From NCBI GenBank assembly GCA_037131105.1, contig JBAXRQ010000001.1, positions 194,039 to 258,038 on the forward strand: a DNA stretch of 64,000 nucleotides. The letters run 5' to 3'. The notes under the pieces are model-generated. The model was not told where the DNA came from and ran no database searches. It saw only the letters and a list, made by a program, of their open reading frames with translations. This document shows, one piece after another, positions 53,312 through 59,135 of this stretch. Every line of letters begins with the position of its first letter. Within the stretch, counting starts at the first letter, position 1. Both the position numbers and the translations under genes were made by a program. The DNA is from a bacterium (GTDB lineage: Bacteria > Patescibacteriota > UBA1384 > CAILIB01).

Positions 53312-54121
53312 CTAGGATTTTTCTAGTTCCTCTGCCAGCTCTTTCACGATCCGCTTATCCGTCTCCGCCTTATCCCAGTCAACGGTTCCTGAAGTGTTTT
53401 GGTTGAATTGGATACCGTTCTCACAGCTCCAGGAGATCCTATTTAGTAGGGCGTATACCGTCACTATTTTTCTTTGCTCTGGACTGAGAACTTCGGCGTC
53501 CATAACGGCGTTGGTGTAGGCCTCTCCGTGACGGGTGCCATACCAACTGGCCTTGATGCGTCCGATGGTCTCCAACGGGTCGCCTTGGGCCAGAGCATCG
53601 AGGTCCACTAGTCCGCTGAACTCTCCCTCATGGACCATTACGTTTTTGCTGGACATGTCGTCGAAGTAGGTGGTTGCCTCCACATGGTTGAAGTAGTCGC
53701 GGTAGCGGTCGAAGACTTCATTAAGAAGCGATTCGAGATCGCCGTCCATTACTCCTGTCTGAAGGCCTCGCTCCTTGGCATTGTTGACCAGTTCCTCCAT
53801 GCAATCTGTCCAAGACTCGAGTAGCTTGCTGTCGTCTCCTAGCTTGTCGCCGAACCTCCCGTTGTTGGGTATCTCTCGGAGCTGTTTGAATATATGGGAG
53901 ATCTCACGGGCGATGGCTGTCAGCTCATCGTCACTAAGCGTATCAATGACGTTGGTGATGTCGGTGCCGGGAAGTTTGGAAAGCACCTGGTAGGCATAGG
54001 GAACGAGCTGGCGGGAGTAGTCCTCGCTCAGGATGCCGTCATCGCTGCAAGTTACTGAATGGCGGCTACCTGCCTCGAAGTCATTGCCGCCCGGGGAATA
54101 CCGTTGGAAAGTGAATGTCAT
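53312..54121 (-). CDS. phosphotransferase (APH/choline-kinase-like) family protein, catalytic motif degenerate
   Basis: Segment NVMVHEGEFSGLVDLDALAQGDPLETIG resembles the APH Brenner/DFG region but lacks the canonical HGD. Confidence 0.35.
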   Translation of the reverse strand: MTFTFQRYSPGGNDFEAGSRHSVTCSDDGILSEDYSRQLVPYAYQVLSKLPGTDITNVIDTLSDDELTAIAREISHIFKQLREIPNNGRFGDKLGDDSKLLESWTDCMEELVNNAKERGLQTGVMDGDLESLLNEVFDRYRDYFNHVEATTYFDDMSSKNVMVHEGEFSGLVDLDALAQGDPLETIGRIKASWYGTRHGEAYTNAVMDAEVLSPEQRKIVTVYALLNRISWSCENGIQFNQNTSGTVDWDKAETDKRIVKELAEELEKS

Positions 54122-54881
54122 AGGCCGTGGGGAGAGTGCTTGGACCGGCGCGTATTTCCGTGTCGCGCAGCCTACGGAGGCCAGAGAAGCAGCTGAAGCT
54201 GAGCGACGCTTCGCGGGCGACGATGAAGCTTTAGTTGCGGTCTACCTCAAGCATGGGCTACTCATAGATACCTATCCGGCGCTCAAGCGCCTCTACGAGC
54301 GGACCGACGATCCCCAGCGCAAACAGCGACTTCAGTATTACCTGCAGGCCGCCGGCCTTCTGAATTGCGCGACCTGCGGATTCCGAGTGACCGCCGAAAA
54401 GTCGAAGGGCCATATCTACTACCATTGCAACAATCGCACTGGAACCTGTACCAAGCGGGGCATCCGTGAGGAAGTTCTGGAGGGGCGGATCGACGCTTTG
54501 TTGGAGGACATTACCGTGTATCCCGAATATGAGCGGCTCGCTTTGGAGATTCTCGATGACATGCGACAGGAGGCATTGAGTAGCCGCCAGGCCATCTTTG
54601 AGTCGCGGCAGCAGGCTTTGGCCGATCTGAAGCGTCAGAAGGACGCCTTGCTGGGTATTTTCCTACAGGGTCACATTACTGACGACGAGTTCGCTGCCAA
54701 GAAGACTGAACTTGTGAAGCTGGACGGAGCAGTCAACCTCAAGGGCGAAGATTCGGAGGAAGAACTGAACGGGGTCTGGCAGACCGCCGCCAGCGCCGTG
54801 AGCTTCATGGCGCAGACAAGGATCCAGTTCCACACGGGGGGATGTGGCCAGCAAGCGCTATGTGGCGGCACACTTGGGTGA
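54120..54881 (+). pseudogene. 5'-truncated remnant of a large serine recombinase (zinc-ribbon + coiled-coil C-terminal part only)
   Basis: CATCGFRVTAEKSKGHIYYHCNNRTGTCTKRG zinc ribbon and downstream coiled coil are paralogous to the C-terminus of the 21490-23061 recombinase; the catalytic resolvase domain is absent. Confidence 0.5.
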
Positions 54882-55069: not shown

Positions 55070-55192
55070 AAGTGAGACACTTTGGCACCTCCATAAAGAG
55101 TGTCTCATTCCACATGCACTCCGGTCATAGTTCGAACCTGATAGTGAGACAAATGAGACACTATAAAAAGGAAAAGACGAATTGTCTCATTT
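55070..55192. promoter_or_regulatory. cluster of five TGAGACA / TGTCTCA motifs (operator-like array) upstream of the DGR target gene
   Basis: gtgagacac (55072), gtgtctcat (55100), gtgagaca (55144), tgagacac (55154), ttgtctcat (55182); the first pair forms a 12-bp inverted repeat. Confidence 0.4.
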
Positions 55193-55340
55193 AATGAAAA
55201 ATAGATAATCTGTTCGGTACATTGTCGGCTGCTAGATTGACAAAGAGGCTAAAATATGGTACCCTTGGCGCGATCTATTGAGATCCTTACACCTGATTGG
55301 CGCTTGGCGTCAAAATCAAACAGGTGTCTGCAAGGAAAAC

Positions 55341-56315
55341 ATGAACGAACTGATGACACAAGGCCAGCTCGATGAAGTCGGCCGCCTCTTCGCCCAACCG
55401 TTTGTCGATCACGGCATCACCGTGGACGACTACCAAATCGTCCGCCAGGACCCCGCCTTCAAGGCGCTCCTGCAAGGACCGGGCGAATACGTCCGGAAAT
55501 TCATCGTCCGCCGTGATTCGGTATCTTCCTATCTCTTCGTCGATGCCCTCCCAGAGAGCGGCTACACGAAGGCGAACACTACGCTCACCTACGACTGGTC
55601 GAAGCGTGGCAGTGAGGACGACCGGCTCGGCAATATCGCCAAGGCAGTGAAAGCTGCATTCGGCATCAACGATGTTGTCCTTACCAATTCGGTGGTTGCA
55701 ATGCCGGCCTGGCAGACCTGCCTCGTGGTTTCTCCGGTTGATCTTCTGCTCCAGATGGGTCTTGACCCTGCGAGCGTGAAGAATACGGACTACTGCAAGC
55801 TGGTCGCCAGCCTGATGAACCAGTTGGCTGGCGTCAAGCCTACCGACTACGTCAATACGTGCCTGGCAACCGAAGCCGCCCGCCTCGAAGCGGAAACGCT
55901 CAAAGCATGGCTTGCCGTTCCGACTACCCAGGAGAAAGGGCAGCCGCTCATCGTCCGCCGCATGGCCGTTAATCCGGCAATCTGGCTTGACCATGAAGGC
56001 ACCGCCTATTCTTTCGCCCCCTTGCACACTCCAGCCCTGTTCGCCAACCTTCCGGTTTCGAACAAGGTGAAGAAAGTGCTCCCGGGTGACATGGTCGTCG
56101 CAGCGAGCCTCCTCATCGGAGAGCCTCACTTGGTTGACCAGATCAAGGCTGGAGCCTGCCCACGTATCGATGTTCCGGGAACGGAATTGCGCGACGACGG
56201 GTCGTGGTCTGGCCGCCCGTGCGTGGACAGGGACGGCTCAGAGGCGTGGATCGACTTCTACTTTGCCGTCGCTGCCGTTGACTTCTTCGGTTCGCTCGGC
56301 TGCGCCTGGGAGTAA
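55341..56315 (+). CDS. DGR target protein with C-terminal C-type-lectin/FGE-like variable domain
   Basis: C-terminal LRDDGSWSGRPCVDR...FGSLGCAWE follows the RGGSWNN...GFRCA CLec-VR pattern; contains the VR; ATG at 55341 has an AAGGA RBS (the longer ORF from 55278 lacks an RBS). Confidence 0.75.
   Translation: MNELMTQGQLDEVGRLFAQPFVDHGITVDDYQIVRQDPAFKALLQGPGEYVRKFIVRRDSVSSYLFVDALPESGYTKANTTLTYDWSKRGSEDDRLGNIAKAVKAAFGINDVVLTNSVVAMPAWQTCLVVSPVDLLLQMGLDPASVKNTDYCKLVASLMNQLAGVKPTDYVNTCLATEAARLEAETLKAWLAVPTTQEKGQPLIVRRMAVNPAIWLDHEGTAYSFAPLHTPALFANLPVSNKVKKVLPGDMVVAASLLIGEPHLVDQIKAGACPRIDVPGTELRDDGSWSGRPCVDRDGSEAWIDFYFAVAAVDFFGSLGCAWE
56187..56311 (+). repeat. DGR variable repeat (VR)
   Basis: 125 bp colinear with TR; 17 mismatches, all at TR adenines. 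Confidence 0.85.
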
Positions 56316-56368
56316 CTGGGCATTTGAATTTCGGCACTTTGGTCTTCTTGACCATTTGCCATTTGACT

Positions 56369-56403
56369 CACGGTATCTGCTTGCAGATACCGTGTTTTAT
56401 TTT
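56369..56403 (+). terminator. hairpin + T-run downstream of VR (target-gene terminator and/or DGR homing-associated hairpin)
   Basis: cacggtatctgc tt gcagataccgtg followed by ttttatttt. Confidence 0.55.
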
Positions 56404-56538
56404 CGTCAGAAAATAAATAACTGGTTTGCTGCTGCGAGGGGGAGTGTGGTATCTTCTGAGTTGAAATGGGGAATGGGAATGCTCGAGCCCTATTTTTAAA
56501 TTTCCAAAACTGGCTAGAATAAGGAGGAAATTAGGTTC

Positions 56539-56772
56539 ATGAACGGCCGTTCACGGATTGCCGTCACCGAAATCACGCTTCTGCCACCGGTAGAGTTGGG
56601 AGCATCTACGGATCTCCCAAGCGTCCAGGCAGCAAGGGTACTCCGTGCCTTGTCCAAGATGGGGAAGACCCGCATGAAATACAGGGATTGTTATTTTCTA
56701 ACACCCGGTGACTTGGATAGGATGAGGCACTTTTGCGCAACGACGGGTCGTGGTCTAACCGCCCGAACGTGA
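56539..56772 (+). CDS. small DGR-associated ORF with strong Shine-Dalgarno, 3' end overlapping the TR
   Basis: AAGGAGG 10 nt upstream of the ATG; 77 aa; function unknown. Confidence 0.35.
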   Translation: MNGRSRIAVTEITLLPPVELGASTDLPSVQAARVLRALSKMGKTRMKYRDCYFLTPGDLDRMRHFCATTGRGLTART

Positions 56773-56857
56773 ACAGGGACGACTCAGAGGCGTGGATCGA
56801 CAACAACTTTGCCGACAATGCCAATGACAACTTCGGTTCGCTCGGCTGCGCCTGGGA
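56733..56857 (+). repeat. DGR template repeat (TR)
   Basis: Nine AAY codons in the VR reading frame; the identical 3' ~40 bp is shared with VR (IMH-like region). Confidence 0.85.
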
Positions 56858-56862
56858 CTGCC

Positions 56863-57183
56863 CTAGCTGAGACTACGTATCCACCCTCCTAGCATCTTTC
56901 CAATTTCTTGGAGGAAGCTCTGGAGGGTGAGGTACTTTTTATCGTCTACGCACTTGGTCTCAAGGGCGAGTCGCACCAACATTTTTAACACATCGAGCTT
57001 GGCGCTGAGCGCCACGAGGGCATTCCTCTTCAGGCTGTTCGGTAGCTGGTTTGCGTGGAGCAACCCTTCAAGCAGTTCCAGCGCCGCATCCTCAAGCCGA
57101 GCTCCTAGCGAAAATCGCTCAACCTTCGGAAATAAATGGATCCATACATGCAGCTGGCAGTAGAAATTAAAAGTTTTCCCCAC
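56863..57183 (-). CDS. avd: Avd-like accessory variability determinant (four-helix-bundle protein)
   Basis: About 106 aa; ERFSLGARLEDAALELLEGL...IGKMLGGWIRS resembles the Bordetella-phage Avd / 23S-rRNA-IVS four-helix family; annotated start is GTG. Confidence 0.65.
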   Translation of the reverse strand: MGKTFNFYCQLHVWIHLFPKVERFSLGARLEDAALELLEGLLHANQLPNSLKRNALVALSAKLDVLKMLVRLALETKCVDDKKYLTLQSFLQEIGKMLGGWIRSLS

Positions 57184-57184
57184 G

Positions 57185-58237
57185 ATGGGGAGGGAACTGG
57201 GCGATTCTCGGGGGGGGAGTTATGGGCATAGTTATCCACAGATAAAGTTTGGCGACATCGTTTCGCTGGAAAACCTGGTAAAGGCCTGGTACGAGTTCCG
57301 CAACGGCAAGCGGTCTAAGCGGGACGTCCAGGAGTTTGAGTTCACCCTTGAGGATAGCATATTTGAACTCGCTGAGGAACTAAAAAACGGCTCCTACAAG
57401 CCACAAAGGTATCACCAGTTCCGCATCAACGACCCCAAGCCGCGCCTCATCAGCAAGGCTGCCGTCCGGGATAGGCTAGTGCACCACGCCATCTATCGCA
57501 TCTTGTACCCCCACTTTGATACCAGCTTCATCTTCGACTCGTACTCATGCCGGGTGAACAAGGGTACCCACAAGGCCTTTGACCGTCTGCAGGATATGAT
57601 TGGGGTGGTAAGCCGGAATTACACGAAGCCCTGCTTCGCCCTGAAGATGGACATCCGCCGCTTCTTCGACAGCATCGACCACGGCATCCTGCTAGAACTA
57701 CTCAAGTACCGCATAGAAGATGAAAAAGTTATTAACTTGCTCCACGAAATCATCGAGAGCTTTGAGGTGAAGCCGGGCAAGGGCATGCCGATAGGCAACC
57801 TCACCTCTCAGCTCTTCGCCAACGTCTATATGGACCCGCTGGACAAGTTCGTGAAGCACAAGCTTAAGGCGAGGTACTACCTGCGCTATGCCGATGACTT
57901 CCTTATCCTGGCCAGTTCCGAGTCGGAGCTGATGGGATGCTTCGTTGAAATAAACGTGTTTCTTAAAGAAACATTAAAACTTGAGCTGCACCCGAACAAG
58001 ATCTCGTTACGGAAATTAAGCTGGGGAATCGACTTCGTCGGCTACGTCGCCCGCCCGCACTATTCCGTTCCCAGGAACGGCACCGCCAAGCGGATGCTGC
58101 GGAATATTGGCAAAGTCGCCGATCCGGAGAAGGTACCGGCCACGCTTGATTCCTATCTGGGATACTTAAGCCATGTCAGCGCCAGGAAAATCGAGGACGA
58201 GCTGCGGCAGAAGGCGGCAGATATTTTGGGGCACTAA
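57185..58237 (+). CDS. DGR reverse transcriptase
   Basis: RT motifs 1-7, including DIRRFFDSIDH, RYADDF, and the DGR-diagnostic IGNLTSQLFANVYM (SQ instead of the group-II SP); 350 aa. Confidence 0.85.
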   Translation: MGRELGDSRGGSYGHSYPQIKFGDIVSLENLVKAWYEFRNGKRSKRDVQEFEFTLEDSIFELAEELKNGSYKPQRYHQFRINDPKPRLISKAAVRDRLVHHAIYRILYPHFDTSFIFDSYSCRVNKGTHKAFDRLQDMIGVVSRNYTKPCFALKMDIRRFFDSIDHGILLELLKYRIEDEKVINLLHEIIESFEVKPGKGMPIGNLTSQLFANVYMDPLDKFVKHKLKARYYLRYADDFLILASSESELMGCFVEINVFLKETLKLELHPNKISLRKLSWGIDFVGYVARPHYSVPRNGTAKRMLRNIGKVADPEKVPATLDSYLGYLSHVSARKIEDELRQKAADILGH

Positions 58238-58477
58238 AGCAGTATCTCGTCTCCGTTCTCATTGAACACCTTCTCTGGGGCAGGCTCCCTGTGCATGGAA
58301 ACGGGAATCGGGGGAAACCTTTTGGGCGGCTACCCCGTCAGGTTAGGAGGCGAATTGAAGCACCACGGTCAGATGCAACCTATGGGACAAAATGGGGCTT
58401 TCAGGACTCCGGTCTGCAACCTTTCCACGCCCCCATTTTTGGCACGGAAATGAGGTATTTATCAGAGTAAAACAAAA

Positions 58478-58505
58478 AATCAGCCGAAGCTGATTCCTTG
58501 TCCTG
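58478..58505 (+). terminator. possible terminator after the RT gene
   Basis: aatcagc cgaa gctgatt followed by ccttgtcctgttttt. Confidence 0.35.
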
Positions 58506-58876: not shown

Positions 58877-58915
58877 CCAGAAAAATAGACACCCAGTGGG
58901 TGTCTATTTTTCTGG
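58877..58915. terminator. 18-bp perfect hairpin ccagaaaaatagacaccc agt gggtgtctatttttctgg abutting the tRNA-Lys 3' end
   Basis: Direct reading; right arm ends in the encoded CCA of tRNA-Lys. Confidence 0.6.
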
Positions 58916-58987
58916 TGGGTCCGGTGGGAATCGAACCCACAACCAATGGCTTAAGAGGCCACTGCTCTACCGTTGAGCTACAGACCC
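58913..58987 (-). tRNA. tRNA-Lys (anticodon CTT)
   Basis: Hand-folded: acceptor GGGTCTG/CGGACCC, D-arm GCTCAACGGTAGAGC, anticodon loop CTCTTAA, T-arm GTGGGTTCGATTCCCAC, CCA encoded. Confidence 0.8.
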
Positions 58988-59135
58988 TCGAGTGAGGAGA
59001 ATGGAAACGTGCTTGCACGGGGACATTCGACGAACGACACGGTCAGGACGAAGTACAGACCCTCGAGTGAGGCAAGCGCAGACCTGCTTGCAGGGATGCA
59101 TTTGCCGAGCGACTGGGTCAGCACGAGCAGCGTAG
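58977..59135. repeat. degenerate ~80-bp tandem duplication starting inside the tRNA-Lys 5' end
   Basis: tacagaccctcgagtgagg occurs at 58978 and 59057; the following ~55 nt are ~65% similar (tgcttgcaNggga core). Confidence 0.5.

Follow-up and report, generated by a model that had tools for sequence, protein, structure and literature searches.

The closest described relatives of the system discussed here are the diversity-generating retroelements (DGRs) of the Candidate Phyla Radiation (CPR). Wu et al. (2018, NAR; PMC5758913) described architecture B3, in which a template repeat (TR) is followed by an accessory variability determinant gene (avd) on the reverse strand and then by a reverse transcriptase (RT) gene, written TR-(avd)-RT; it accounts for 90% of CPR DGRs. 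Roux et al. (2021; PMC8144416) placed the CPR DGRs in a dedicated cellular clade and found DGRs to be significantly enriched in CPR. As for the RNA, Handa et al. (bioRxiv 10.1101/2023.10.23.563531) reported that in Bordetella the TR 3' end pairs with the spacer (Sp) RNA 3' of TR in a template:primer duplex, and that a second Sp duplex, with a segment just upstream of TR (the avd:Sp "cPRT Stop"), marks the end of cDNA synthesis; their survey, with a window reaching from 40 nt before TR to 100 nt beyond it, recovered similar distal pairings in many DGRs, CPR included. Here, we analyze a 64-kb stretch of bacterial contig JBAXRQ010000001.1 (hereafter the window; all coordinates are positions in it and all strands are relative to it) that holds a target gene ending in a variable repeat (VR), a TR, an inverted avd, and an RT gene (Table 1). 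With a probability of roughly 90%, we read this locus as a chromosomal, architecture-B3 (CPR-type) DGR working by the mechanism proposed below.

Support for the DGR reading comes from VR/TR mismatches that fall on adenines only, from an Avd that passes an equivalog cutoff, and from an RT that lies nearer to the Bordetella RT (bRT) than to those of group II introns. VR and TR (56187-56311 and 56733-56857) are direct repeats of 125 nt each with 86% identity, and 421 nt separate the end of the first from the start of the second; the initial annotation had put the TR at 125 bp, 420 bp downstream of the target, and both values were reproduced. The repeats differ at 17 of 125 positions, and at all 17 the TR base is an adenine, replaced in VR by G (eight times), T (eight times), or C (once). 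Every one of these substitutions falls on codon position 1 or 2 of the target frame. Mismatches outside the TR adenines, which had been named beforehand as one of the observations that would speak against a DGR, were looked for, and none was seen over the 125 nt (0/17); the chance of placing 17 of 17 mismatches on 29 adenines among 125 bases is P = 1.3e-13 (hypergeometric). Read in the target frame, TR contains seven AAC and two AAT codons, and 17 of its 29 adenines are substituted in VR. The 3' 27 nt of VR (56285-56311) are identical to TR, 70% GC, and almost without A, resembling an initiation of mutagenic homing (IMH) sequence, and the flanks of the two repeats diverge directly after these shared 27 nt, at the target stop codon. 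This is a textbook TR/VR signature. There is a single VR, with no further VR or TR copy in the window. The hairpin with a T-run beyond the target stop looks like an ordinary terminator, though it could alternatively serve as a DGR target-site hairpin; comparable hairpins lie 3' of VR in the relatives.

All four components of the complete DGR that the initial annotation had listed (target with VR, TR, Avd, and DGR-type RT) were found where it had placed them. Its Avd-like gene of about 106 aa on the opposite strand encodes 106 aa on the minus strand, and the product matches Pfam bAvd (PF22296) at 3.1e-17 with 63.4 bits (cutoff 40) and passes the NCBIfam DivGenRetAVD equivalog model (NF033474) with 80.8 bits against a cutoff of 80. 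The RT has the predicted 350 aa, and its motif 4 ends in SQ, not SP, as had been read from IGNLTSQ. The best PDB match is 8ub7_A, a 328-aa RT with IGSLTSQLFANVY (9e-45, 156 bits); the best group II intron RT in the PDB reaches 81 bits, about half of that score. Judging from its length, motif, and matching span, 8ub7 appears to be Bordetella bRT, since the tblastn match of our RT to Bordetella phage BIP-1 (34% identity) covers exactly residues 24-327. Identities of 34-38% (tblastn) were obtained with the RTs of DGR phages, ANMV-1 and Bordetella BIP-1 among them, and the same search reaches Faecalibacterium and crAss-like phages, which are DGR-bearing viruses. Homologs number in the thousands; those with names come from Patescibacteria, Berkelbacteria, Kazan, and Saccharibacteria.

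One may ask whether such an RT could instead belong to a group II intron, a retron, or a DRT/Abi defense system, with the repeat pair being incidental. The best NCBIfam match is the group II RT/maturase model (TIGR04416, 147.9 bits), there are weak matches to the Drt3a and retron St85 RT models, and the database names of some homologs read "retron-type" or "maturase." These scores are, however, far short of the respective cutoffs (147.9 of 300 for TIGR04416, 74.1 of 200 for Drt3a, 56.7 of 235 for retron St85, and 51.1 of 390 for Drt2), and bRT scores twice as high as any group II RT. Rfam scans returned no group II intron or retron RNA, a dedicated Avd adjoins the RT, and a repeat pair that differs at adenines only is not incidental. 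We therefore give this alternative practically no weight.

The start codons of avd (GTG, minus strand) and RT (ATG, plus strand) stand head to head with one base between them (57181-57187), and the relatives show an equally tight arrangement. Neither start has an obvious Shine-Dalgarno sequence, nor did a promoter scan find a convincing sigma-70 promoter for them, so the promoters must lie within each other's coding regions.

The layout, with avd inverted between TR and RT, had been called unusual in the initial annotation. This description had to be abandoned, as it is the B3 architecture: of 32 related loci from CPR, Verrucomicrobia, Chlamydiae, and Bacteroidota, 31 (or 30 of 31 when only distinct loci are counted) have an Avd homolog directly before the RT gene, encoded on the other strand. 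The sole locus without an antiparallel avd is the one with the most distant RT (35% identity). At least 15 loci show the full order, that is, target with VR, a spacer of 280-420 nt, TR, avd on the minus strand, and RT on the plus strand, together with adenine-biased mismatches. In the present locus, the TR-(avd)-RT order and the reverse-strand avd are accompanied by no other accessory gene. The cassette is flanked by housekeeping genes of an ordinary kind (NrdD, DHODH, pyruvate kinase, and NDK), and the named relatives of the neighboring pyruvate kinase are from Patescibacteria only. Given these flanks and the Patescibacteria-related RT and pyruvate kinase, the DGR is chromosomal and resides in a CPR-type genome.

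The target protein (324 aa) is identical to a protein of an NCBI metagenome-assembled genome (MAG), which also encodes an RT identical to ours; the target forms a one-member cluster at 90%. It has seven close relatives, and its family is rare, with 16 cluster representatives among 1.84 billion in an exhaustive profile search. The family memberships that profile searches had been expected to return were obtained for Avd (Pfam and NCBIfam) but not for the target, for which no CLec or FGE family match, or any other, was found. Likewise, the C-type-lectin (CLec)/FGE pattern said to be readable in the target sequence could not be recovered, the protein being without a match in Pfam, NCBIfam, or the PDB sequences. 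A confident AlphaFold model built from a 21-sequence input (predicted local distance difference test, pLDDT, 91.8; predicted template modeling score, pTM, 0.81) has a C-terminal fold that appears CLec-like and similar to the DGR variable proteins TvpA (2y3c), Mtd (1yu0), and TaqVP (5vf4). A Foldseek search of the model against the PDB gave nothing significant. On the strength of the model, and despite the lack of a sequence match, VR is probably carried on a highly divergent CLec-like domain. The protein has neither a transmembrane segment nor a signal-like N-terminus. CPR targets are typically without transmembrane or other recognizable domains (Roux et al. 2021; PMC8144416), and a divergent CLec-like target agrees with that expectation.

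A homolog of the target (48% identity) with a VR-like C-terminus is found elsewhere, at L004:985-1815, between an amino-acid kinase and an arginyl-tRNA synthetase gene. This 3.6-kb contig has no RT, avd, or TR. The homolog would be the target of a remote DGR, an orphaned target, or else a fossil.

Directly 5' of TR lies a stretch of about 200 nt (56526-56732) that is more conserved among the nearest loci than TR itself (nhmmer 1e-48 to 1e-65), and in which RNAalifold predicts several helices with compensatory changes. A covariance model (R1), built from four sequences, gave 19 matches among 38 sources. Every match lies on the TR-sense strand and stops at the TR start; loci from Verrucomicrobia, Parachlamydiales, and Bacteroidota are among them. 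In the R1 alignment, 92.6% of cells are paired (34-44% in slid-partner controls), and 42 of 48 pairs show double-sided changes. An independent MAFFT/RNAalifold analysis of ten loci recovered the inner hairpin and helix 8, the latter with double-sided changes in seven of its eight pairs. Owing to its G-U pairs, the structure is specific to the plus strand, which is the TR sense strand.

Two features tie this element to the template. The 3' end of helix 8 abuts the TR start, and in 10 of 10 loci tested the TR-VR homology begins 0-6 nt past the last helix 8 base (a 3-nt indel masks this coincidence in L015); helix 8 is thus a candidate reverse-transcription stop. In addition, a 28-nt segment that directly precedes helix 8 shows complementarity to the 3' boundary of TR and its flank, although the sequences themselves differ among lineages: CAGC.AGGGTA.TCC faces GGA.TGCCCT.GCTG here, GAGAATTAG faces CTAATTTTC in L008, TAGCAGAG faces CTCTGCTA in L010, and GACACTCC faces GGAGTGTC in L012. 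With short defined strands, cognate duplexes are the more stable, at -17.8 kcal/mol as against -11.1 kcal/mol for non-cognate ones (permutation P 0.00065).

Several observations weigh against this RNA model. The pair statistics of R1 come from an alignment fitted to the model, and the weaker of the R1 hits (E 1e-3 to 3e-2) are to some extent circular as evidence. For the invariant GGCAGCAAGGG stretch, a local pairing partner competes with the long-range one; the RNA may adopt both conformations in turn, or one prediction may be in error. RNAduplex z-scores for the 260 nt upstream against the TR 3' end were about 0, but this crude test says little, because long arms always find some duplex. A promoter scan found no canonical sigma-70 promoter for the TR RNA; a putative -10-like hexamer, TAGAAT, precedes the RNA block, its T, A, A, and T being invariant in a four-locus alignment (TATAGT, TACAAT, and TACAGT in the relatives).

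Gene callers annotate a small ORF in this same stretch (56539-56772, plus strand), and the initial annotation treated it as an extra ORF, driven by a Shine-Dalgarno sequence and overlapping TR. The open frame of 77 codons does exist, a perfect AAGGAGG stands 8 nt before its ATG, and it runs into TR; a tblastn match to L001 with 67% identity over 57 aa would further suggest a small accessory protein of the DGR. The claim to be a real gene did not survive comparison with the relatives. What L001 shares is nucleotide sequence, and a 1-nt indel behind the aligned ATG shifts that locus into another frame. In L021, codon 21 of the frame is a stop, in L009 the frame closes at codon 45, and the AAGGAGG is absent from all three. 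Variable columns are spread over the three codon positions without bias (33/29/31), the peptide has no Pfam or NCBIfam match, no ORF is conserved in the spacers of 14 other B3 loci, and the stretch folds into the helices with compensatory changes described above. The broken frames and the lack of codon-position bias rule the ORF out as an accessory gene, and we consider a protein product highly improbable. As far as comparative sequence evidence can tell, the stretch is a conserved structured RNA element, not a gene. For annotators, this means that small ORFs called in the VR-TR spacer are spurious.

The element need not be part of the template RNA. It might act at the DNA level as a site, or be a regulatory RNA or leader of its own, involved, for example, in antisense control of avd or in termination of target-gene transcription; antisense regulation is conceivable in that the downstream strand of the long-range duplex extends into the 3' end of avd. 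Against this stand the plus-strand specificity given by the G-U pairs, which is that of the TR sense strand, the fact that the element always ends at the TR start, the coincidence of helix 8 with the 5' limit of TR-VR homology, and the covariation of the 5' strand with the TR 3' flank. The geometry also matches the TR-bracketing duplexes needed for Bordetella DGR cDNA synthesis. A separate element is accordingly a rather improbable alternative to a 5' domain of the DGR RNA.

We scanned 56300-57250 against Rfam at E<=1 and found no family, only two chance-level hits (CRISPR-DR8 and Xist). Rfam 15 contains the RT-1 to RT-19 motifs of Weinberg et al. A pattern search of metagenomes for more copies of the element returned only duplicates of L001 and L009. 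Five B3 loci (L006, L007, L014, L017, and L019) remained unmatched by R1 at E<=1. A strong GC-rich hairpin occurs immediately 3' of TR in at least four loci, in the group of L006, L007, L016, L019, and L025. From the unmatched loci and these hairpins, it would follow that B3 DGRs may have more than one type of TR-flanking RNA. In the present locus, at 56881-56929 and antisense to C-terminal codons of avd, CACCCTCC...GGAGGGTG and CCTCC(T)AG...CTTGGAGG can, by eye, pair as a hairpin, and L010 has matching changes (CATCCTCC...GGAGGATG). This hairpin could correspond to the Avd-binding stem-loop that other DGRs are reported to have 3' of TR, or the conservation of Avd codons alone could account for it.

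Is the DGR still at work? The reading frames of target, avd, and RT are all intact, and the complete DGR is probably active. The one other assembly that carries the locus (L041) is identical over 7053 bp, VR included, and so offers no VR heterogeneity across assemblies, although a single identical copy tells little about variation. Add to this the integrase remnant beside the cassette, which suggests an old insertion, and one could picture an inactive relic, a DGR by descent with a target that is no longer diversified. Decay, however, would have added some non-adenine mismatches, whereas VR and TR have none in 125 nt; with 17 of 29 adenines substituted and the genes intact, including the YADD and SQ motifs of the RT, these differences argue for a DGR that is functional or was so recently. 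The RNA element 5' of TR is also as well conserved as in the relatives. Overall, a relic is unlikely.

Table 1. Features of the DGR locus (positions in the window)
Feature	Position	Strand	Remarks
DGR target gene, 324 aa	55341..56315	+	N-terminal helices, alpha/beta domain, and divergent C-terminal C-type-lectin-like domain (model)
Variable repeat (VR)	56187..56311	+	Final 42 codons of target gene 55341-56315
Hairpin with T-run	56369..56404 (hairpin 56369-56394)	+	11 bp; 54 nt past target stop, 57 nt past VR
-10-like hexamer TAGAAT, putative promoter of TR RNA	56515..56520	+	About 7 nt before RNA block; inference only
Structured RNA element, proposed 5' domain of DGR RNA	56526..56732	+	About 200 nt; directly 5' of TR
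Long-range duplex, 5' strand	56617..56644	+	RNAalifold; holds invariant CAGCAAGGGTACTCC and clade-wide ACTYC motif
Helix 8 with internal loop and hairpin	56645..56730	+	56645-56655 pairs with 56720-56730; covariation
Template repeat (TR)	56733..56857	+	125 nt, 29 adenines
Long-range duplex, 3' strand	56854..56881	+	Last TR bases and downstream flank; antisense to avd stop and last codons
avd, accessory variability determinant, 106 aa	56863..57183	-	GTG start; antiparallel, head-to-head with RT
DGR reverse transcriptase, 350 aa	57185..58237	+	RVT_1 5.9e-24; IGNLTSQ at residue 203, YADD at residue 235

Outside the cassette, the DGR adjoins a serine-recombinase remnant and two tRNA genes. A 282-aa ORF at 54033-54881 (plus strand) corresponds to a large serine recombinase reduced to its zinc ribbon and coiled coil, without the catalytic resolvase domain, and overlaps the 5' end of an APH-like phosphotransferase gene (53312-54121, minus strand); it looks like an integrase remnant. 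With this remnant on one side of the DGR and tRNA-Glu and tRNA-Lys on the other, the region may be an old integration site. Two tandem units of about 73 nt (58979-59126), 77% alike, directly adjoin the 5' end of tRNA-Lys(CTT) (58913-58987, minus strand). They are imperfect palindromes on the plus strand (dG -20 and -34 kcal/mol), and neither matches Rfam.

The locus is an ordinary DGR of the standard CPR (B3) type, a well-known kind. It adds one instance to the thousands of DGRs catalogued in CPR genomes and is already present, partly annotated, in a public MAG; for these reasons, it changes nothing by itself. Its rare target, with no recognizable domain, apparently no membrane anchor, and a divergent CLec-like tip, provides a further case for asking what CPR DGRs diversify, and against what. 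The sole mildly novel aspect is the conserved 5' RNA domain with its template-delimiting geometry. The RNA family was not found in Rfam, and an earlier mention of a conserved sequence upstream of TR in Paul et al. 2017 is possible. If the RNA domain is real, it offers a testable model of how cDNA priming and termination could proceed without a downstream Sp in the commonest CPR architecture.

The mechanism that we propose runs as follows. A plus-strand RNA would start near 56526 and consist of a structured 5' domain of about 200 nt, the TR of 125 nt, and about 25 nt or more of downstream flank, the latter being antisense to the avd 3' end. Helix 8, at the 5' edge of TR, and the long-range duplex that joins the 5' domain to the TR 3' flank would together close TR into a loop. 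RT and a pentameric Avd would then reverse-transcribe TR, misincorporating opposite adenines, with helix 8 limiting the 5' extent of copying. The mutagenized cDNA would replace VR at the target 3' end and so recode up to about 14 AAY/GAC-type codons in the divergent, presumably ligand-binding, C-type-lectin-like domain.

Compared with the Bordetella DGR RNA core, both RNAs bracket TR by base-paired segments: one duplex marks where the copied region begins on its 5' side, and a strand next to it pairs with the TR 3' end or its flank. Here, however, the bulk of the structured RNA (about 200 nt) lies 5' of TR rather than 3', the 5'-edge helix (helix 8) is made wholly of upstream sequence, and the partner of the TR 3' flank is found about 90-115 nt upstream of TR, outside the 40-nt survey window of Handa et al., whose survey of DGR RNA elements is the only one published. 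The bracketing of TR is also shared with the RT-10 motif of Rfam/Weinberg (PMC5737381), although the present RNA matches no Rfam family in sequence or structure. As the structure is mostly 5' of TR and only antisense avd lies downstream, we tentatively suggest, at somewhat less than even odds, that B3 DGRs use a circularly permuted DGR RNA, in which the Sp scaffold of Bordetella (primer strand, stop-duplex strand, and protein-binding stem-loops) has been moved 5' of TR. Helix 8 would then be the stop, and the ACTYC strand would pair with the TR 3' end and position or provide the primer. Such a permutation, if true, would explain why avd can be inverted directly after TR.

At the level of the cassette, the DGR of Bordetella phage BPP-1/BIP-1 (mtd-avd-TR-brt, architecture B1) has in common with ours the IG(S/N)LTSQLFANVY motif in an RT that is 34% identical (24-327), an Avd homolog, adenine-specific TR-to-VR differences, AAY codons, and a VR at the C-terminus of a CLec-fold protein (a predicted fold in our case). 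It differs in that our avd stands in reverse orientation between TR and RT, a sense-strand TR-RT spacer (Sp) is absent except for antisense avd, and the cassette is cellular, not phage-borne, with a target that is no tail fiber. The B3 DGRs of CPR (PMC5758913; equivalent to DGR clade 2 of Roux et al. 2021, PMC8144416) are closer still: order and orientation are alike, both are chromosomal with targets that lack a recognizable domain or transmembrane segment, and nothing essential differs, the present locus standing out only by the rarity of its target family (16 cluster representatives).

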